Part shown: positions 2,484-12,032 of the stretch, one piece after another | Position numbering within the stretch: position 1 is the first letter of the stretch | Layout of the letters: every line of letters begins with the position of its first letter | Assembly (NCBI GenBank): GCA_030668875.1 | Contig: DAOVER010000054.1 | Location: 1 to 19,626 of the forward strand | Length of the DNA stretch: 19,626 nt | Direction of reading: 5' to 3' | Source of the DNA: Candidatus Heimdallarchaeota archaeon | GTDB lineage: Archaea; Asgardarchaeota; Heimdallarchaeia; Heimdallarchaeales; Heimdallarchaeaceae | Notes under the pieces: model-generated | What the model was told of the DNA's origin: nothing | The model's database searches: none | What the model saw: only the letters and a program-made list of their open reading frames with translations | Translations under genes and position numbers: made by a program

Positions 2484-3776
2484 ATGAAGGCTATAATCAA
2501 TGTGAAAATATATGATTATGAAACCTATATTGAAAACGGTTTTTGTATTTATGGTAAAGAGATCAACGCAGTCGGAAATATGAAGAATTTTCCTGATTTT
2601 GATGGTGAAATTATTGACGGTAAGAACAAAATTCTCCTTCCAGGACTTATCAATTCTCACACCCATATCTATTCTACACTTGTTCGAGGAGCTTCCATTC
2701 CTTTTAATCCTAAGAGTTTCAGAGACATTCTAGAACAGCTCTGGTGGAAGTTCGATAGCAAGCTAGATAATACCTCTACTTTCCATAGTGCAATGGTTTA
2801 TGGTTTGGAATCGTTGAAAAATGGTGTAACTTCATTAATAGATCATCATGCAAGTGGAATAGACATTATAGGTAGTATTGAGGCACTAAAGAAAGCTATT
2901 GTTGATAAGCTTGGTATGCGTGGAATTTTCTGTTTTGAGACTAGTGATCGTTTTGATGTTGATGAATGTATTGAAGAAAACTTAGCTGGTTTGGAATATG
3001 ATTCTTTTGACGCTAGTGGAATGTTCGGTTTGCATGCTTCTATGAGTCTTTCAGAAGAAACTCTCGATAAGGTATCTCGAGTTCTCAAAGGTGCTCCTAT
3101 CCATGTTCATGTAGCTGAGAGTATAGAGGATGAAGATGATTCAATTGACAAATATAGGATGAGAGTTATCAATCGTTATCTAAACTACGGTCTTTTGAAT
3201 AAAGATTCTATTCTCGCTCATTGTGTTCATATTAATGAAGATGAAGCTAAATTCATTAGTCAAAATAAAGCTGTTATCGCTCTCAATCCAACTTCGAATA
3301 TGAACAATGCTGTTGGTTCTTTTAACATTGATCTTTTCAGAGATAATAATATCCAAATACTAATAGGAAATGATGGTCTAGGAACTAATATTGCAAAAGA
3401 ATGGACTTACTTCTTCTTTGCAGGAAAAGCTGGAATTAATGATGCAGCAGGAATTGGTTTCGATGAGTTGTTAAAGTATATTAATGATTCATATGACTAT
3501 TTTGGTAGAAGAATGGGTATAAAGATAGGAAAAATCAAGAAGGAATATGTAGCTGATTTTGTGCTAGTTCCTTATATTAATCCCACTGAAATGAATTCTG
3601 GAAATGCTTTTGGTCATGTTTTCTTTGGTTTATTTGACAATTTCAAACCATCTTGTGTGATAGTTAAAGGTGAAACTCTCATAGAGAACTACAAGAGCGT
3701 CTTTGATGAGGAAACATTATATAATAATGCTCGAATTTCTTCTAAAGCCTTATGGAAAAGGTTAGGTGACGTTTAA
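2484..3776 (+). CDS. ssnA: SsnA-like metal-dependent amidohydrolase (chlorohydrolase/aminohydrolase family), purine catabolism-associated
   Basis: Metal-ligand motifs PGLINSHTHIYS, GLHAS, HVHVAE, AHCVH, GNDG. LEQLWWKFD and TSLIDHHASG are typical of the SsnA subfamily. Context next to xdh genes. Confidence 0.85.
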   Translation: MKAIINVKIYDYETYIENGFCIYGKEINAVGNMKNFPDFDGEIIDGKNKILLPGLINSHTHIYSTLVRGASIPFNPKSFRDILEQLWWKFDSKLDNTSTFHSAMVYGLESLKNGVTSLIDHHASGIDIIGSIEALKKAIVDKLGMRGIFCFETSDRFDVDECIEENLAGLEYDSFDASGMFGLHASMSLSEETLDKVSRVLKGAPIHVHVAESIEDEDDSIDKYRMRVINRYLNYGLLNKDSILAHCVHINEDEAKFISQNKAVIALNPTSNMNNAVGSFNIDLFRDNNIQILIGNDGLGTNIAKEWTYFFFAGKAGINDAAGIGFDELLKYINDSYDYFGRRMGIKIGKIKKEYVADFVLVPYINPTEMNSGNAFGHVFFGLFDNFKPSCVIVKGETLIENYKSVFDEETLYNNARISSKALWKRLGDV

Positions 3777-4853
3777 ATGGATCTTTCAGTAAAAATTCTT
3801 GGTTTGCATTTTGAAAATCCTCTTGGTCCAGCAGCTGGTCCTATCGTAGAAGGACTTGAAAATATGCTGTTCTTCAATAATAACACATGTGGTTTTAATG
3901 TTGCTAAGACTATTTCTGTTGAAGGGGCTATTGTTCCTAAGCCATGTATTGCAGGTACTTCAAATACTATCTACAACTGTGAACTTTGGTCTGAGTTGCA
4001 TTCAGATGTCTGGATAAATGAAATTCTTCCAACTATTCACAAAGATAAGAAAAAACCTGTAATCATCAGTGCTGGTTACAAAGAAGAAGATTTTAGATAT
4101 CTTATTCCAAAACTTGATCCTTTTGCGGATATGTTTGAGATTTCTACTCATTATGTTTCAGAAGATCTTCTAGCAGGTATAGTGAAAAGTATCCGAGAAA
4201 ACACTGACAAACCTATTTTTATGAAACTCAGTCCTCATGTAGATGATTTTCTTGGATTTGTCAGAACTGTGATTGATGCTGGAGCTACAGGTATTGTAGC
4301 AATAAATTCACTGGGACCAGGTACAGCAATAGATTTGAAAAAACGTTCAGTTCTTTTAGCTGAGCAAATATGGATGAGTGGTCCTTCAATTAAACCTATA
4401 GCACTTCACAGAATTTACAACATTAGAAAATCATTCCCTGATATACCAATTATTGGTGTTGGAGGTATAGGAAGGGCTGAAGATGTACTTGAATTCATTC
4501 TTGCAGGAGCAGATCTTGTGCAAATGCTTTCTTCTGCCTTAATTAAAGGGAGACATTTGTATGATACAATAATAAAAAATCTTCCAACAGCTCTTGAAAA
4601 ATACGGTTTTTCATCGATTGAAGAGATTAGGAAAATTAGAAAGGAAACTATTTTCAAGGATATAGATACAGCTGTTGATAACTATCCATCTTTCAACGAA
4701 AAGTGTAACATGTGTGGACTCTGTGTTCGTATATGTCCAGCTGGAGCTTTATCTGAGGCAGAAACCATAATTGTAGATAAAGAGAAATGTATACACTGTG
4801 GATTATGTGAATCACGTTGTCCACAAAATGCAATATATGGAGTGCTTAGATGA
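3777..4853 (+). CDS. FMN TIM-barrel oxidoreductase (DHOD/PreA-like fold, YgfK N-terminal-like) with C-terminal 2x[4Fe-4S] domain
   Basis: NPLGPAAGP, KT, FMKLSP, INSLG, MSGPSIKPIAL, PIIGVGGI, AGADLVQ (DHOD-type FMN barrel). Two ferredoxin motifs, CNMCGLCVRICP and CIHCGLCESRCP. No N-x-S-C-P-N catalytic loop (EISTHY instead). ATG directly follows the ssnA TAA; SD AGGTGA at 3764-3769. Confidence 0.8.
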   Translation: MDLSVKILGLHFENPLGPAAGPIVEGLENMLFFNNNTCGFNVAKTISVEGAIVPKPCIAGTSNTIYNCELWSELHSDVWINEILPTIHKDKKKPVIISAGYKEEDFRYLIPKLDPFADMFEISTHYVSEDLLAGIVKSIRENTDKPIFMKLSPHVDDFLGFVRTVIDAGATGIVAINSLGPGTAIDLKKRSVLLAEQIWMSGPSIKPIALHRIYNIRKSFPDIPIIGVGGIGRAEDVLEFILAGADLVQMLSSALIKGRHLYDTIIKNLPTALEKYGFSSIEEIRKIRKETIFKDIDTAVDNYPSFNEKCNMCGLCVRICPAGALSEAETIIVDKEKCIHCGLCESRCPQNAIYGVLR

Positions 4854-6061
4854 ACAATCACATATTGAAATGTATAACTTGTAAAAAAGAATTTGATCCA
4901 AAACCAGGTCTCTATTACTGTGAAGATTGTGGTCAGATTATGGGTACTTTGGAAGTTGTTTATGATTATGATACCTTAAGAGAGGATAATTTTCTAAAGG
5001 AAAGAATTTTTGATAAGAAGGCTTCTATGTATCAGTTTGATTTTCTTCTCCCAACCAAACCAAAATGCAAATTTGATGAGCACATTGGTGGAACACCTTT
5101 GTTCAGATTTGATCTTTTAGGTATCAAGAATGTACTAGTCAAATATGATGGTTCCAATCCATCTAGTTCCTACAAAGATCGTGCAAGTTCAGTTGCTATC
5201 AATAAAGCTCTTGATGAAGGTAACGACATTCTTTTTTGTGCATCAACTGGAAATGCAGCTTCATCATTAGCTACTCTTAATGCTCATACTGATATGAAAA
5301 CATACATTTTCGTTCCTGCATCAATACCAGCTGGTAAGAGAGCTCAACTAGAAATTTCTGGAGCAGAGGTAATGGCAGTTGAAGGAACATACGACGAGGT
5401 TTATGATGTGTCCCTTGAACTTGGACTCAAAAAAGGTTGGTACTGTAGACATGCTGCAATCAATCCCTATCTTCTTGAAGGAAAGAAAACTGGAGCATTT
5501 GAGATAGCTATTCAGAACGATTTTGTTATGCCTGATTATGTTCTTGTAGGAGTAGGTGATGGAACAGTAATTAGTTCTCTTTACAAAGGATTCTGGGAAT
5601 TCAAGGAAATTGGTTTAACAGACAAGATTCCCAGAATCATTGGCGTTCAAGCTGAAGGTATACCTGCGATAAAGGAAGCATTTGATAAAGGAAAACCATA
5701 TACACCTGTATCAATCAAAGGTAAAACTGTCGCTGATAGTATCTCTGTTGGTAAACCACGTGATGTCATTAAAGCATGTACCTATATTGAAGCTTGTAAT
5801 GGTTATTTCATCACTCTGTCAGATGAAGAAATTCTTGATGCAATAACAGAATTAGGGAAAGAAACTGGCTTATTCGCAGAACCAGCTGGAGCTGTACCTT
5901 ATGGTGGGCTGAAAAAACTTATTTACGAAGAAAAAATAACCGAATCAGATACTGTTTGTCTTGTTATTACCGGTAATGGACTTAAAGATGTCAATGCAGT
6001 TGAAGGTTTGATAAACACAGGATCCTTATCAATTAAGGAATTAGAAAAAAGGTTTGAATGA
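4850..6061 (+). CDS. Threonine synthase-like PLP-dependent enzyme (fold type II) with N-terminal CxxC..CxxC zinc ribbon
   Basis: NPSSSYKDR (PLP Lys), ASTGNAASSLA, VGVGDG, ADSISVG, AEPAGA, VITGNGLKD. ATGA overlap with the upstream gene. Confidence 0.85.
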   Translation: MNNHILKCITCKKEFDPKPGLYYCEDCGQIMGTLEVVYDYDTLREDNFLKERIFDKKASMYQFDFLLPTKPKCKFDEHIGGTPLFRFDLLGIKNVLVKYDGSNPSSSYKDRASSVAINKALDEGNDILFCASTGNAASSLATLNAHTDMKTYIFVPASIPAGKRAQLEISGAEVMAVEGTYDEVYDVSLELGLKKGWYCRHAAINPYLLEGKKTGAFEIAIQNDFVMPDYVLVGVGDGTVISSLYKGFWEFKEIGLTDKIPRIIGVQAEGIPAIKEAFDKGKPYTPVSIKGKTVADSISVGKPRDVIKACTYIEACNGYFITLSDEEILDAITELGKETGLFAEPAGAVPYGGLKKLIYEEKITESDTVCLVITGNGLKDVNAVEGLINTGSLSIKELEKRFE

Positions 6062-7431
6062 TGAAGTCAATTCTTAACCAAGAGATAATAAAAATAGATG
6101 AACCATTAGGTAACTCTACACTTGATTTCTTACGAAATAAAGGTATGAAAGGAGTTAAGGAAGCATGTCATGAAGGGGAGTGTGGAGCATGTATGGTGCT
6201 TCTTGGTGAGTTAAAGGATAAAAGTGTAGAATATAAAGCTGTTACATCTTGTCTTCTCCCCCTAGGTGAAATTGTTGGCAAACATATTGTAACAATTGAA
6301 GGATTAAATCAAGAAGACTTGAGTCCCATTCAACAAGCGTTGGTAGATGAAGGAGCAAGTCAATGTGGTTTTTGTACACCAGGATTCGTCGTTAGTTTGA
6401 CTGGATTTTTCCTAAATGAAAAACTTGAGAAAAAAGATATTCTAACATCAATTGAAGGGAATATATGTCGATGTGGAACATATGCTGCGATTATAAGAGC
6501 AGCAGAAAAGTTAGCTAAGGAAATCTCTATGAAGGATAAAAAATCAAAAGAAAGAATCCAACAACTTATTGAAAATCGTATTTTACCTGCCTATTTCTTG
6601 GATATACCTAATCAGCTTGAAAAATTAAAAGAATCGAGTGAAACAAAACTGCCTAAAGAAGGGACTTACGTTGCAGGAGCGACAGATTTGTTAGTTCAGC
6701 ATGAGAGCCTATCTGATCCACTCTTTTTGTCAGAAAAGAAACTTTCTGGAATAAGTTTAGATGGAGAGTACATCTATATTGGTGCAACGACAACTATGGA
6801 AGATATTCGCATTTCAGAAGAGATGAATACGCTTTTCGATACTAAACAAGATATTTCTCTAGTTTCCTCATTTCCTATTAGATTACAAGCTACTTTAGGA
6901 GGTAATCTCGTTAATGCTTCTCCCATTGGGGATCTCATTATCTATTTTCTTGCTCTAGACGCAGAAATAAGTCTTAAGAGTGAAAAAGACAGGAGAATTA
7001 TCAAACTTAGAGATTTCTATAAAGATTATAAAATAATGGATATTAATGAGGGGGAGATAGTTGAATGGCTTAGAATCAATAGTAAAGAGAGGTTATTTAA
7101 CTTTGAAAAAGTAGCGCGAAGGAAATATATGGACATAGCTAGTGTCAATAGTGCTATTTCATTTGATTTGAACAATGATAAAATACAAAACGTTCATTTA
7201 TCTGCTGGAGGAGTAGCTCCTGTTCCTAAGTATCTGGAAAAAACTTCTGACTATCTTGAGAACAAGAAGATCTCAGAAGATATACTAAAAGAAGCTGTAA
7301 AAATTGCTGATTCTGAGATTAATCCCATAGATGATGTTCGGGGATCAGCTCGTTATAAGAGATTACTCTTTAGACAGTTAATTTATGCTCATTTCTTAAC
7401 ACTATTTCCTGATTTGGAGGTATCACTATGA
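6058..7431 (+). CDS. xdhA: Xanthine dehydrogenase small subunit, fused 2x[2Fe-2S] + FAD-binding domains
   Basis: GVKEACHEGECGAC..C and SQCGFCTPG..GNICRCG (2Fe-2S); VAGATDL, ATLGGNLVNASPIGD and PIDDVRGSARYKR (FAD domain). ATGA overlaps on both sides. Confidence 0.93.
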   Translation: MMKSILNQEIIKIDEPLGNSTLDFLRNKGMKGVKEACHEGECGACMVLLGELKDKSVEYKAVTSCLLPLGEIVGKHIVTIEGLNQEDLSPIQQALVDEGASQCGFCTPGFVVSLTGFFLNEKLEKKDILTSIEGNICRCGTYAAIIRAAEKLAKEISMKDKKSKERIQQLIENRILPAYFLDIPNQLEKLKESSETKLPKEGTYVAGATDLLVQHESLSDPLFLSEKKLSGISLDGEYIYIGATTTMEDIRISEEMNTLFDTKQDISLVSSFPIRLQATLGGNLVNASPIGDLIIYFLALDAEISLKSEKDRRIIKLRDFYKDYKIMDINEGEIVEWLRINSKERLFNFEKVARRKYMDIASVNSAISFDLNNDKIQNVHLSAGGVAPVPKYLEKTSDYLENKKISEDILKEAVKIADSEINPIDDVRGSARYKRLLFRQLIYAHFLTLFPDLEVSL

Positions 7432-9668
7432 AGGATCTAATTTCTCCTCACACTCGTGGTGAATCGATTTATATTGATGATATTCCTGAACCAATCAATC
7501 TACTATATGCTGTAGTCTTCACATCAGATATTCCGCACGGAAAAATCATCTCCCTTGATATAACAAAAGCGGAGAACAGTGAAGGTGTTTGTAAAGTTCT
7601 TATCGCTAAAGATATCCCGGGAGAAAATCAAATAGGACGTCTTATTCAGGATGAAGAACTCCTTGCAGAGAAAGAAGTTGATTTTATAGGTCAACCAATT
7701 GCAGTAGTTTTAGCTGAAACAAAAGAGCAAGCTAAACTAGCGATTAAGTTAATTAACATTGAATATGAGGGACTTCCTGCTGTTTTCGACTCTCGTGAAG
7801 CAGCAAGAAAAGGATTACTGATTTCTTCTTCACGCACCTTAACGATTGGAGATATTGAATCAACTTGGGAAAAATGTTCAACTGTTATCGAAGGAATAGC
7901 TGAGTCAGGGGGTCAAGAACATGTATATCTTGAAACACAAGCTTCGCTAGCTATACCAGATGAAAATGGCAGAATAATCATTTATTCTAGTACTCAAGCA
8001 CCTACAACAGTTCAAAGTACAACTTCAAAAATTCTAGGATGTGATATGAACTTAATTGAGGTTGATGTGAAACGACTAGGTGGAGCTTTTGGTGGAAAGG
8101 AAGACCAGGCTACACCATGGGCAGCTATTTGTGCACTTGGAGTTTATCATACAGACCGACCAGTGAAGCTAGTTCTTACTAGACGTGAAGATATCATTAT
8201 GACGGGTAAACGTCATCCCTACTCAACTGATTATAAGATAGGTCTAGATGAAGAAGGTAAAATACTTGCTTTTTCTGCTGAGTTTTATCAAAATTCAGGA
8301 GCTGCAGCTGACCTTTCTACAGCTGTTCTTGGACGAACACTTTTTCATGCAACTAATGCTTACTATATCCCTAATGTCCGTGTAACAGGCTATCCATGTA
8401 AAACTAATATCGTTCCTTTCACTGCTTTCAGGGGTTTTGGTGGTCCTCAAGGAATGTTTGTTATAGAATGTGCTATTGCACATGCTGCTGAAGTAACAGG
8501 TATTCCAGTTGCAGTTTTACAAGAGAAAAACTTACTCCAAGATGGAGATCAATTTCATTATGGGCAGCAAGTTGAGAATTGTAACGCAAAGCGAAGTTTT
8601 TCTCAAGTTGTTAAAGATACTAATTTTGAAAAAAGAAAAAAGGAGATAGATGATTTTAACACAAATAATCGATTTACTAGAAAAGGTATCTCCATAATGC
8701 CCATTTGTTTTGGGATTTCATTCACTTCTTCTTTTCTTAATCAAGCTGGAGCTCTTGTTAATGTTTACAAGGATGGAAGTGTAAGCATTAGTACAGGCGC
8801 AATTGAAATGGGTCAAGGGGTTAACGTTAAAATCAGACAAATCGCAGCAAAAACCCTTTCAATTAATCCCGAAAGGATTCGGATAGAAAGTACAAGTACT
8901 AGTCGGGTAATTAATACTTCACCAACTGCTGCAAGCACTGGGACTGACCTTAATGGAAAAGCAGCAGAGATAGCTTGTAATAAGATAATAGATCGATTGA
9001 AAAATGCTGCAGCAGAGAAGTTAGGTACAAATGCCATTTCAATAGAAAATGAGTATGTCTATCAAGACGGAAAAAGAACAGAGATCTCTTGGAGAAAACT
9101 TGTCAATTTAGCTTATTTACAAAGAGTTAATCTTTCTGCTCAAGCATTTTATGCGACACCTAGAATTCATTTTGATACTAAAAAAGAGAGAGGAAGACCT
9201 TTTGCTTACCATGCTTATGGAACAGCAGTTACAGAAGTAACTGTTGATTGCTTAAGAGGGACATATACAATTGATAAAGTTCAAATGGTTCACGATGCAG
9301 GAAAAAGTCTTAACTATCTTATAGATTTAGGACAGGCTGAAGGAGGATTAATTCAAGGAATCGGCTGGATGACTATGGAAGAGTTAGTCTTCGAAAAAGG
9401 AAAAAACTTTACAGATTCCTTATCAACATATAAAATACCTAACCTTTATTTCACTCCTAAGATTGAAGTTACTTTTCTAGAAGATGCCGAAAATCCAGAA
9501 GCTGTTTTGAAATCAAAAGCTATTGGAGAACCCCCCTTCATGTATGGAATAGGTACTTACTTCGCACTAAAGAATGCTGCTAGAGCATTTCGTAAAGATA
9601 AGGAATGGGAATATTCATCTCCTCTGACACCAGAAAAACTCTTACTCTATCTTCATGATTTGGAGTAA
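7428..9668 (+). CDS. xdhB: Xanthine dehydrogenase molybdopterin-binding large subunit
   Basis: GGQEHVYLE, SSTQAP, RLGGAFGGKE, AFRGFGGPQG, EMGQG, PTAASTG, GQAEGG and KAIGEPP (catalytic Glu). SD GGAGG at 7416-7420. Confidence 0.95.
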   Translation: MKDLISPHTRGESIYIDDIPEPINLLYAVVFTSDIPHGKIISLDITKAENSEGVCKVLIAKDIPGENQIGRLIQDEELLAEKEVDFIGQPIAVVLAETKEQAKLAIKLINIEYEGLPAVFDSREAARKGLLISSSRTLTIGDIESTWEKCSTVIEGIAESGGQEHVYLETQASLAIPDENGRIIIYSSTQAPTTVQSTTSKILGCDMNLIEVDVKRLGGAFGGKEDQATPWAAICALGVYHTDRPVKLVLTRREDIIMTGKRHPYSTDYKIGLDEEGKILAFSAEFYQNSGAAADLSTAVLGRTLFHATNAYYIPNVRVTGYPCKTNIVPFTAFRGFGGPQGMFVIECAIAHAAEVTGIPVAVLQEKNLLQDGDQFHYGQQVENCNAKRSFSQVVKDTNFEKRKKEIDDFNTNNRFTRKGISIMPICFGISFTSSFLNQAGALVNVYKDGSVSISTGAIEMGQGVNVKIRQIAAKTLSINPERIRIESTSTSRVINTSPTAASTGTDLNGKAAEIACNKIIDRLKNAAAEKLGTNAISIENEYVYQDGKRTEISWRKLVNLAYLQRVNLSAQAFYATPRIHFDTKKERGRPFAYHAYGTAVTEVTVDCLRGTYTIDKVQMVHDAGKSLNYLIDLGQAEGGLIQGIGWMTMEELVFEKGKNFTDSLSTYKIPNLYFTPKIEVTFLEDAENPEAVLKSKAIGEPPFMYGIGTYFALKNAARAFRKDKEWEYSSPLTPEKLLLYLHDLE

Positions 9669-9708: not shown

Positions 9709-10971
9709 TTAGAGTTTCATTGCCGGATAGCTCACTCTGAGGGGGTAAACCACATACCCTCCTACCCCGCCCACACTACGTTGAGGTAGTGCTTGCGGAT
9801 CGCCTTTAAGTAAAATGTTGTAGGCAGCATTAACATCAGCATTGATTAATAATCCTGTTGCAGAACGAAACAATCCTCGGTGAACCCTTTTCCCCTTATA
9901 GTTAGTCTGTTTCTTTGGGAATTCATTGTCTATGAAACTACATTTAGAGGTATAAGACTCATCAATAGGTTCAACATTTATCCCTTTCTCTTCTGCCTTG
10001 TAAGTGAGGAGTTTGATGAGTTTGTCAAAGGGGACGATAACAAAGAGTTGGGTAGTCTTCTTTCTCAACTTCAATTGCTGTTTCCAGAGAGGGTTGTATC
10101 CAATATACACGGTGTGTAAGCCTCTTGTTTCCCAGAGGTCAACGAGGAATTTGCTAACTTTGTGTAACCAATCCCTCACCTTCCATCTCCAATGTTGACG
10201 GAGATGAAGGAAGCTTGAACCGTACTGTAATCGAGTGTTCTTTTGACGTAACTGTTTATGTTGCTGTGCTGTATATTGCTGTTGTAACTTTTTTACTTCT
10301 TTCAGATAATATTGTGTGAGTGACTTTATCCCTTTCCCCTCGTCCTTGATGACAATCGGACGCGATCCGATGTTATCCACGAAAGTCACGAGGTTGATTA
10401 GCCCTAAATCGATAGAACCTTTCTTTTTCTTCTTCTTTCTAATTGCTTTAGGAAGGTGTTTGTGATAAACAAGCTCTACTGTGTAACCTATCCCTCTGGG
10501 GATGATGCGCACTTCTCGCAAGTCATCCTGAGCCGTTAATCGGGTCTTGATAGTAAAGTTAACTTTCTTTGGTAACAATACCCACCCATTAGCAATTTTT
10601 GCTTGTTGGTTGCTGAAGATAGCTATTGTCTCCCCCGTAGGTTTCTTGAAATAGGGAGCACAAGGACAGCTGAGGAATTTGCTAGGCTGTCTCTTCCATT
10701 CTTTCAGAGCGTAGAAGTAAGCTTTCCAGTTCCTTGACAGCAATTTGAGTGCGTGTTGAGCGGTATGGGCAGGTAAAAGTTTGTAACACTACTCTCCCTT
10801 TAAGAGCCTATCTAAGTCGTTGTAGAACAACAATTTATTGTTTTTCTTCAACTCTTCTTTTATCAGAAAGTTTCCTCGATTATAGAGATTCTTCGTTTGA
10901 TGACAAAGTTTGCTTAACTCTTTGTTTCTTCTTACTTCCATTATCTCTGTCAGCAAGACTTTTGTCATCAT
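9709..10971 (-). pseudogene. tnpB: TnpB RNA-guided nuclease interrupted by one in-frame TAG (10789-10791)
   Basis: ORFs 10789..10971 and 9709..10743 share a frame. Reading through gives ...KLCHQTKNLYNRGNF...LLKGE*CYKLLPAHTAQHALKLLSRNWKAYF..., then RuvC-I SIDLGLINL, LTYKAEEKGINV, DESYTSKCS and RuvC-III INADVNAAYNI. Total 420 codons plus stop. Confidence 0.9.
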
Positions 10972-11060: not shown

Positions 11061-12032
11061 ATGTTTGTTATGAATGAAAAACAATTTTGGGAAATGGTTC
11101 TAGATACTCTGGAAAAAGGAAATAGTGCAGTACTTGTTGTTATAATCGATAAGAAAGGGTCTGGACCAAACTTACCTGGAGCAAAGATGTTTGTAACATT
11201 AAATGAAGTGAGTGGAACTGTAGGAGGAGGAATCTCTGAACTTAATTTACTAAATCATGCTAGGAGATTGTTGAAAGAAGGAAAGATTGCCACTGAAACT
11301 ATCCTCCTAGAACACAGTGAAACTGCAGAAGAAAATCGTTCAGGTATGATCTGTTCTGGTTCGCAGACTTTCGCATTAGTTCCTCTATCAACTTTGGATA
11401 AGAGCACTATCAAAGCAATAATAGAAGCTTATGATGAAGTAAAAACAGGCCTAATTGCCATAAGCGAAAAAGGAATCAGTTTTGATAGAAACAAATCTTT
11501 AACGGAAGATAGAGTTTTTTCCACGGAAAACGAAATATGGTCGTATCAAGAAAATATTGCACAGCAAAATAAGCTCTTTATTATAGGAGGGGGGCATGTA
11601 TCACTAGCTTTATCTCGGGTCATGAAAACATTGGGTTTTCATATTACAGTCTATGAAGATAGAGAGAATCTACCAACCATGAACAGCAACACATTTGCTC
11701 ACAAAAAGGAAATTCTAAGTTATGACGATATTGCTGGAAATATCCCAGAAGGAGACAATATCTATATTACAGTAATGACTTTTAGACATTTTTCAGATGA
11801 AAATGTACTTGAGAGGATTATTTCTAAGAAGTGCAGATATATTGGAATGTTAGCAAGTGTAAAAAAAGCAGAAACAATTTTTTCCAATCTTGATAAAAAG
11901 GGAGTTTCAAAGAAACTACTTGATATGGTTCACTCTCCCATTGGTATAAAAATCCAAAGCAATACTCCTGAAGAAATTGCAATAAGCATCGCAGCTGAAA
12001 TTATCCTCACTAAAAATTCTAATCTCAGATGA
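11061..12032 (+). CDS. xdhC: XdhC/CoxI family molybdenum-cofactor sulfuration/insertion accessory protein
   Basis: KGSGPNLPGAKM..GTVGGG, GMICSG, KLFIIGGGHVS, VYEDR, VMTFRHFSD, YIGMLAS, VHSPIGIKIQSNTPEEIAISIAAEII. Alternative start at ATG 11070. Confidence 0.92.
   Translation: MFVMNEKQFWEMVLDTLEKGNSAVLVVIIDKKGSGPNLPGAKMFVTLNEVSGTVGGGISELNLLNHARRLLKEGKIATETILLEHSETAEENRSGMICSGSQTFALVPLSTLDKSTIKAIIEAYDEVKTGLIAISEKGISFDRNKSLTEDRVFSTENEIWSYQENIAQQNKLFIIGGGHVSLALSRVMKTLGFHITVYEDRENLPTMNSNTFAHKKEILSYDDIAGNIPEGDNIYITVMTFRHFSDENVLERIISKKCRYIGMLASVKKAETIFSNLDKKGVSKKLLDMVHSPIGIKIQSNTPEEIAISIAAEIILTKNSNLR

Follow-up and report, generated by a model that had tools for sequence, protein, structure and literature searches.

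The reductive urate or 2,8-dioxopurine pathway, which bears on gout and on purine turnover in the gut, was solved only in 2025. In E. coli, XdhD reduces urate to 2,8-dioxopurine, the ring of which is then reduced and opened by YgfK together with SsnA (Li et al. 2025, Life Metab 4:loaf031, PMC12507026; bioRxiv 10.1101/2025.05.19.654654), and YgfK was independently named NADPH:2,8-dioxopurine oxidoreductase (DOPOR; Liu et al. 2025 preprint). In C. difficile, the place of YgfK is taken by a PydA homolog of PF01180, named UacX (UniProt Q181U4; here CdUacX), which has a flavin mononucleotide (FMN) site, is without the flavin adenine dinucleotide (FAD) domain and probably uses reduced ferredoxin (PMC12507026). 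The same study counted every PF01180 neighbour as UacX in its SsnA neighbourhood analysis, and its Methods describe the purification of CdUacX and a methyl-viologen assay (PMC12507026). The other closely related described system is PydAc, the ferredoxin-dependent dihydropyrimidine dehydrogenase (DPD) of Clostridium chromiireducens, which reduces uracil (Wang et al. 2020, PMC7332683). Here we examine a putative reductase gene encoded in a stretch of 19,626 bp from the metagenome-assembled genome of a Candidatus Heimdallarchaeota archaeon (contig DAOVER010000054.1 of GCA_030668875.1), referred to as the window, and compare it with these systems.

We consider it likely, with a probability of roughly 80%, that this gene encodes a UacX-type 2,8-dioxopurine (isoxanthine or "yanthine") reductase, a compact counterpart of YgfK that works without NAD(P)H in the reductive breakdown of uric acid and purines under anaerobic conditions, with 2,8-dioxopurine as the predicted substrate and its electron donor likewise predicted. 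Enzymes of this type were given the name UacX in a description of 2025, of which the Heimdall protein would be an archaeal member; what is new here is its presence in an Asgard archaeon, its YgfK-like active-site signature and the apparently bacterial origin of the archaeal gene. The word "archaea" does not occur in the text of Li et al. (Life Metab, PMC12507026) or of the Liu et al. preprint, and our literature searches found no report of a reductive urate pathway in Asgard archaea.

Domain architecture and active-site signature

The open reading frame (ORF) at positions 3777–4853 of the forward strand starts with ATG, remains open throughout and encodes 358 amino acids. Its matches to DHO_dh (PF01180; residues 3–273, E 6.6e-38) and to Fer4 (E 8e-16) are far beyond chance, and these are the only domains of the protein, whose family ranges from 355 to 369 amino acids. 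The three strings quoted in the original prediction were located at residues 15–22 (PLGPAAGP), 44–58 (KTISVEGAIVPKPCI) and 67–73 (NCELWSE), and the two C-terminal 4Fe-4S motifs are there as well. The cluster ligands would be C310, C313, C316 and C320 for one motif and C338, C341, C344 and C348 for the other, all eight of which are invariant among 50 family sequences. The FMN- and ring-binding residues of the superfamily are retained, namely K44, N67 (N609 of DPD), K150, N177 (N736 of DPD), S201-G202 and G229-G230. Two variant family members, L118 (G079; 431/411 amino acids) and L117 (G078; 389 amino acids), carry an insertion before the ferredoxin domain and are still flanked by SsnA-like and PALP genes.

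The AlphaFold2 (AF2) model showed a confident TIM barrel (pLDDT 92.6, pTM 0.89), and the best structural templates were the class 1B dihydroorotate dehydrogenase of L. lactis (DHODB; PDB 1EP1-3), on which the barrel superposes with a template-modelling (TM) score of 0.86, and domains IV–V of pig DPD (PDB 1GTH etc.), to which the barrel together with the ferredoxin domain gave query-normalised TM scores of 0.80–0.84. The FMN-binding Lys, Asn and Gly-Gly are conserved with both templates. On the other hand, their catalytic Cys (C135 and C671, respectively) and lid loop are absent from the Heimdall protein, residues specific for orotate or uracil differ, and so does the metabolic context.

The active site was compared in a 107-sequence MAFFT alignment, with 99 family members and with YgfK, PydAc, PreA and four PyrDs as outside sequences. 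As had been proposed from the sequence of the window, the S-C-P-N/H catalytic loop is missing; the reductase has E-I-S-T-H-Y where PyrD, PreA, PydAc and pig DPD have E-x-N-x-S-C-P, and the lid loop that follows E121-I-S-T-H-Y126 is about 12–14 residues shorter than in these enzymes. Nine positions are invariant in the family: C57 (98/99), I58, W71, S123, T124, H125, Y126, S178 and W199. Five of them (C57, I58, S123, H125 and S178) are also present in E. coli YgfK and in none of PydAc, PreA and the four PyrDs, all of which have N123, S125, C126, T178 and G199. Position 199 is Trp in the family and aromatic in YgfK, and position 57 is Arg in PydAc, PreA and 3 of the 4 PyrDs, with Ser in the PyrD of the Heimdall genome itself. 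In L. lactis DHODA, the corresponding position (Pro56/Arg57) lies close to the lid loop. YgfK reads A-S-D-H where S123 and H125 are shared; Y126 aligns with the canonical catalytic Cys, and YgfK has Pro there.

The similarity to YgfK is also seen outside these positions. Residues 4–125 of the reductase matched residues 43–176 of E. coli YgfK (from NC_000913) by BLASTP, with 26% identity and an E-value of 8e-5, and the YgfK motifs which the original prediction had cited (PVGPAAGP, KTV, KPCI and NTEWS) are in register in this alignment. Over the whole barrel, hhalign aligned residues 4–257 with 43–387 of YgfK (246 columns, probability 91%, E 1e-6). In the tree, the YgfK barrel attaches at the base of the reductase family, and grouping YgfK with the PydA type was rejected by the approximately unbiased (AU) test (delta lnL 13.9, p 0.012), for a group that was defined after the tree was seen and a single YgfK sequence with a branch length of 10. 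Since five invariant positions are shared only with the barrel of YgfK, a comparison of sequences supports a reductase active site which is YgfK-like and not merely DPD-like.

Compared with YgfK of E. coli (TIGR03315, IPR017701), the Heimdall reductase thus has a homologous N-terminal barrel, a gene next to ssnA and presumably the same reaction; both proteins carry the GPAAGP and KPCI motifs, have S-x-H where other enzymes have the Cys loop, and share [NK]-S-L-G. However, YgfK has 1032 amino acids, with large insertions in its barrel and a GltD-like module (Fer4_20 and Pyr_redox_2) for FAD and NAD(P)H, whereas the Heimdall protein has neither domain and cannot bind NAD(P)H; and the pairwise similarity amounts to only 26% over 136 aligned positions. 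The TIGR03315 model gave 18.1 bits against a cut-off of 835.3, and matched through its positions 42–112 only, so that the protein is not a full-length YgfK. No fused relatives of at least 628 amino acids were found at E≤1e-20, which is weak evidence by that search's own grading, and no PreT/GltD gene lies next to the reductase, the sole GltD/PreT-like gene of the genome being unlinked on contig C15. The absence of the module, as claimed for this protein from the start, was therefore seen both in the protein and in its surroundings.

Operon context and the purine pathway

The reductase comes second in a tightly coupled operon of five genes (ssnA, reductase, ThrC-like, xdhA and xdhB). The stop of ssnA (ending at 3776) directly abuts the reductase ATG (3777), and each of the ThrC-like, XdhA and XdhB genes begins with a 4-nt overlap with the gene before it (Table 1). 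In four other Heimdall genomes (L010:9248-10391, L011, L012 and L020), 1.1–1.4 kb separate the reductase from the ThrC-like gene, compared with the overlap in the window. We surveyed 80 loci of named genomes. Of the 73 with enough upstream sequence, 70 have SsnA immediately upstream in the same orientation, and in 66 it lies within 60 nt. In bacteria, the gene order is YgeY-YgeW-HyuA-SsnA-X-(ThrC-like)-YgfM-XdhD, X being the reductase, and a gene for an FAD/Fe-S subunit of xanthine dehydrogenase (XDH) is always close to it. The XdhA and XdhB of the window are of the Rhodobacter/Pseudomonas type (TIGR02963 and TIGR02965, just under the cut-offs), where bacteria have YgfM-XdhD; with at most 32% identity to any XDH of the bacterial clusters, they make the operon a mosaic.

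The ThrC-like gene, which encodes a pyridoxal phosphate (PLP) enzyme, would be called a threonine synthase by NCBIfam TIGR00260 (195 bits, cut-off 167), and two further ThrC-like genes are found in the same genome on contigs C85 and C23. Among 61 bacterial loci, 26 had a ThrC-like gene and 19 had YgeX (diaminopropionate ammonia-lyase), while none had both. When only the loci with 9 kb on both sides were counted (n = 39), 14 had the ThrC-like gene, 19 had YgeX, none had both and 6 had neither. This mutual exclusion is consistent with the last step of the pathway having been taken over by a non-orthologous enzyme.

Table 1. Features of the window around the reductase gene, with residue numbers of the reductase
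Feature	Position	Strand	Basis or remark
SsnA-family amidohydrolase, expected partner hydrolysing the reduced ring	2484..3776	+	Best NCBIfam match SsnA, 342 bits, below cut-off; 29% to E. coli SsnA
UacX-type reductase gene, 358 amino acids: FMN barrel and C-terminal 2x[4Fe-4S] domain (probable assignment)	3777..4853	+	Open ORF; Pfam DHO_dh/Fer4; AF2 model
DHO_dh-fold FMN (TIM) barrel, residues 3-273	3783..4595	+	Pfam, alignments; K44, N67, K150, N177, S201-G202, G229-G230 conserved
K55-P56-C57-I58 (KPCI)	3939..3950	+	BLASTP to YgfK, family alignment; candidate relocated proton donor
N67-C-E-L-W-S-E73, equivalent to pig DPD N609-IELISE (substrate-binding Asn)	3975..3995	+	Alignments; W71 invariant, family-specific
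E121-I-S-T-H-Y126 in place of the E-x-N-x-S-C-P Cys loop of PyrD/DPD, then truncated lid loop	4137..4154	+	Alignments
Two CxxCxxCxxxCP motifs (C310-C320, C338-C348) for two [4Fe-4S] clusters	4704..4823	+	Sequence, Pfam, alignment
Threonine-synthase-like PLP enzyme, operon partner	4850..6061	+	ATG overlaps reductase stop by 4 nt
XdhA-type small subunit (2x[2Fe-2S] and FAD)	6058..7431	+	Family matches
XdhB-type molybdopterin subunit	7428..9668	+	Family matches
TnpB (IS605-family, RNA-guided nuclease type)	9709..10743	-	Between xdhB and xdhC
XdhC maturation factor	11061..12032	+	Set apart from xdhB by TnpB insertion

A second purine-pathway locus was identified on contig C61 of the same genome (L090:3231-17588). 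It encodes MocA, a selenium-type XDH (TIGR03311, 864.7 bits, above cut-off), a carbamate kinase with 52% identity to YqeA, YgeW-like and ATCase-like carbamoyltransferases, a flavin-reductase-like protein (L090:14831-15364, minus strand) and a HyuA-like hydantoinase. The YgeW-like protein is 46–51% identical to the copies of the bacterial clusters; the hydantoinase shows 46–51% identity to the HyuA found ahead of SsnA in bacterial clusters, and 63–75% to the HyuA of three further Heimdall genomes (L011, L026 and L027), where both genes are on one contig and HyuA is the upstream one. As HyuA and SsnA share one contig in these three genomes, the pathway is split in the genome of the window. Taken as orthologs, SsnA, HyuA and YgeW are 42–54% identical to the bacterial pathway enzymes. 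Orthology of the selenium-type XDH to the XdhD-like neighbour of bacterial UacX was considered and rejected at 24–25% identity; this XDH matches a third XDH of some Clostridium loci at 35–38%. The near-universal coupling to SsnA and the presence of the rest of the reductive urate pathway support the purine-ring reductase that the original prediction had proposed, as far as gene content can indicate a reaction.

On these grounds a mechanism can be proposed. The two C-terminal [4Fe-4S] clusters, the eight Cys of which are invariant, would accept electrons one at a time from a donor of low potential, for which reduced ferredoxin is the most likely candidate by analogy with PydAc. Electron entry linked to XDH may be an alternative route, since the FAD/Fe-S subunit of XDH is always encoded nearby. 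From the clusters the electrons would pass to FMN in the barrel, whose fold and FMN residues are in place, and the reduced FMN would give a hydride to the pyrimidine ring of the oxopurine. The proton would be supplied not by the canonical loop Cys but by another residue; C57 and H125 are candidates because both are invariant and shared with YgfK (C98 and H176 of the E. coli enzyme in the BLASTP alignment). The unstable dihydro product would be pulled forward by the translationally coupled SsnA opening the ring, as the biochemistry of YgfK and SsnA from E. coli suggests (PMC12507026), and the HyuA, YgeW and carbamate kinase orthologs of contig C61 would then continue the pathway.

An extension of this scheme is conceivable, though rather doubtful. 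UacX and the YgfK barrel might form a distinct catalytic lineage of the dihydroorotate dehydrogenase/DPD superfamily, which discarded the Cys-bearing mobile lid loop and moved the proton donor to C57 (in a beta-hairpin, with Arg elsewhere) and/or to H125. The Heimdall enzyme might be wired to the co-transcribed XdhAB, with the oxidation of hypoxanthine or xanthine directly paying for the two reductive steps; the archaeon would then have acquired from Clostridia a purine fermentation that balances itself.

Assignment of the enzyme and its rivals

Three of the features of UacX in Li et al. are found here: the Heimdall protein has the PF01180 barrel, it is without the FAD/NAD(P)H domain, and its gene neighbours ssnA in a uricolytic cluster. 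It is like CdUacX in joining an FMN barrel to an Fe-S domain beside SsnA, as a proposed replacement of YgfK. The two also differ, since the architecture of CdUacX was published as PydAc-like with two ferredoxin domains (PMC12507026) and the Heimdall protein has one; moreover, the host in our case is an Asgard archaeon, with a flanking Mo enzyme of the XdhAB type.

Several observations weigh against the assignment as a 2,8-dioxopurine reductase. The Heimdall protein was likened to CdUacX (Q181U4) by its published description and not by its sequence; among 77 genomes of the family around a Peptostreptococcaceae genome, no match was identifiable as that of C. difficile. We found no activity result for CdUacX in the accessible Results or supplement text of Li et al. 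2025 (PMC12507026). No YgeX ortholog was found in the Heimdall genome (best match 24.7%), nor a convincing YgeY (M20 peptidase), for which the best match, on contig C58, had 24% identity compared with 53–73% among the bacterial clusters. No ferredoxin gene lies within the reductase operon. The placement of YgfK comes from one sequence whose branch is very long, and as a whole the scaffold is nearer to PyrD-B/PydA (116 bits) and to DPD than to YgfK (32 bits), also in its fold. Finally, the operon carries an Mo enzyme of the XdhAB type and not XdhD/YgfM, and thus the compound fed to the reductase could differ from the bacterial one.

This last point leads to the rival that deserves most attention, at which the fold and the SsnA partner are the same and the substrate is another oxopurine or ring intermediate (e.g. 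xanthine, 6,8-dioxopurine or urate), given the pairing with a Rhodobacter-type XdhAB. The low identity (at most 32%) of the Heimdall XdhA/XdhB to the bacterial-cluster XDHs is in line with it, as is the low identity of the selenium-type XDH of contig C61 to the XdhD-like neighbour of bacterial UacX (24–25%), and the substrate of UacX is itself a predicted one. Nevertheless, all substrate-pocket positions that we examined are invariant between the Heimdall proteins and the bacterial members in canonical clusters, and the 42–54% identity of SsnA, HyuA and YgeW to the bacterial enzymes argues for the same intermediates, so that we regard another substrate as unlikely.

Much less probable is a ferredoxin-dependent DPD of the PydAc/PreA kind that reduces uracil or thymine, even though PydAc is the most similar enzyme of a characterised type (hhalign 99.8%, E 6e-30), the NxELxSE motif resembles NIELISE of DPD and the NCBIfam PreA model matches at 121 bits. 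PydAc shares with the Heimdall protein an FMN barrel with C-terminal 2x[4Fe-4S] and without an FAD domain, and is a precedent for ring reduction driven by ferredoxin or viologen in this fold. On the other hand, PydAc has an extra N-terminal Fer4_20 (four clusters, 16 Cys) and the Heimdall protein one ferredoxin domain with 8 Cys; PydAc keeps R57 and the N-F-S-C-P Cys loop, of which the Heimdall protein lacks both the catalytic Cys and the lid; and PydAc sits in a Pyd cluster, whereas the Heimdall gene has no PydB, PydC or PreT context and is locked to SsnA and XDH. The score for PreA/PydA2 (NF006183) was 121.5 bits against a cut-off of 335, with no adjacent PreT/PydA1. C. chromiireducens itself carries both types as distinct paralogs in different clusters, namely a 362-amino acid ortholog of the window protein (51% identity) inside an SsnA/HyuA/YgeY/YgeX cluster, and a 501-amino acid paralog of PydAc architecture (L097; Fer4_20, DHO_dh and Fer4_21; 33% identity) next to an M20 peptidase gene. 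The first of these (L078) had been considered as PydAc and was rejected because of its cluster, the PydAc type being the 501-amino acid paralog. In the tree, a branch with support of 99 splits the reductase family from PydAc, PreA and the four PyrDs, and the clustering with true PyrD or PreA which would have spoken against the original prediction was thus not seen.

It is hardly credible that the gene encodes the cell's dihydroorotate dehydrogenase, as the automatic names would have it, in the form of a class 1B PyrD with a fused ferredoxin domain. The best match in the PDB, by sequence and fold, is indeed DHODB of L. lactis (116 bits; TM 0.86), and the best NCBIfam matches are PyrD models, but the class 1 PyrD scores are well under their cut-offs (168 and 161 bits for NF005574 and TIGR01037, cut-offs 269 and 270). 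The orotate-binding motif of PyrD (N-S-x-G-L-x-N-P-G, or more generally N-x-x-G-L-x-N-x-G) is replaced by N-C-E-L-W-S-E, the catalytic Cys is absent and the gene is set in a purine catabolism context. A separate, canonical pyrD of the genome is found on contig C34, with the N-L-S-C-P loop intact and beside a dihydroorotase-like gene. Because the curated models stay below their cut-offs and this separate pyrD exists, the reductase is not the housekeeping enzyme, judging from its sequence and gene context.

The alignment to YgfK, PreA and PyrD suggested along with the original prediction left the curated PyrD and PreA models under their cut-offs and aligned the YgfK barrel by hhalign. The anticipated mislabelling as pyrD or preA was encountered too, in the public names "dihydroorotate dehydrogenase (fumarate)" and "dihydrouracil dehydrogenase (NAD+)" of the relatives. 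The signature of C57, S-T-H-Y, W71, S178 and W199 separates UacX from PyrD, PreA and PydAc, and could be used to correct this widespread mis-annotation. Being common to the YgfK barrel, it also offers concrete mutagenesis targets for the proton donor.

Origin and distribution of the archaeal genes

The closest relatives of the reductase (70–93% identity) are all labelled Candidatus Heimdallarchaeota or Heimdallarchaeaceae, and the pathway core was found in at least 19 species-level genomes of Heimdallarchaeota. Nine sampled Heimdall sequences formed one clade (support 99) nested inside a Clostridia clade (support 96), and monophyly of the bacterial sequences was rejected by the AU test (p 0.011). 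This nesting and this rejection favour, under outgroup rooting, a transfer from bacteria into Heimdallarchaeia. The reductase gene would have come from Clostridia-like bacteria together with ssnA and the ThrC-like gene. A pathway core of apparently bacterial origin in Heimdallarchaeota bears on Asgard fermentation in sediments.

One 2.9-kb contig labelled Thermococci archaeon (L081) encodes the reductase and ThrC-like genes and branches inside a Thermotogaceae clade; either the contig was wrongly binned, or archaea acquired these genes a second time.

In other Heimdall loci (e.g. L010 and L015), xdhC follows xdhB by about 30–60 nt. As xdhC trails xdhB so closely there, the TnpB insertion between the two genes in the window is a recent one. 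A second OrfB_IS605 fragment is located at the end of contig C61 (L090:3-842).

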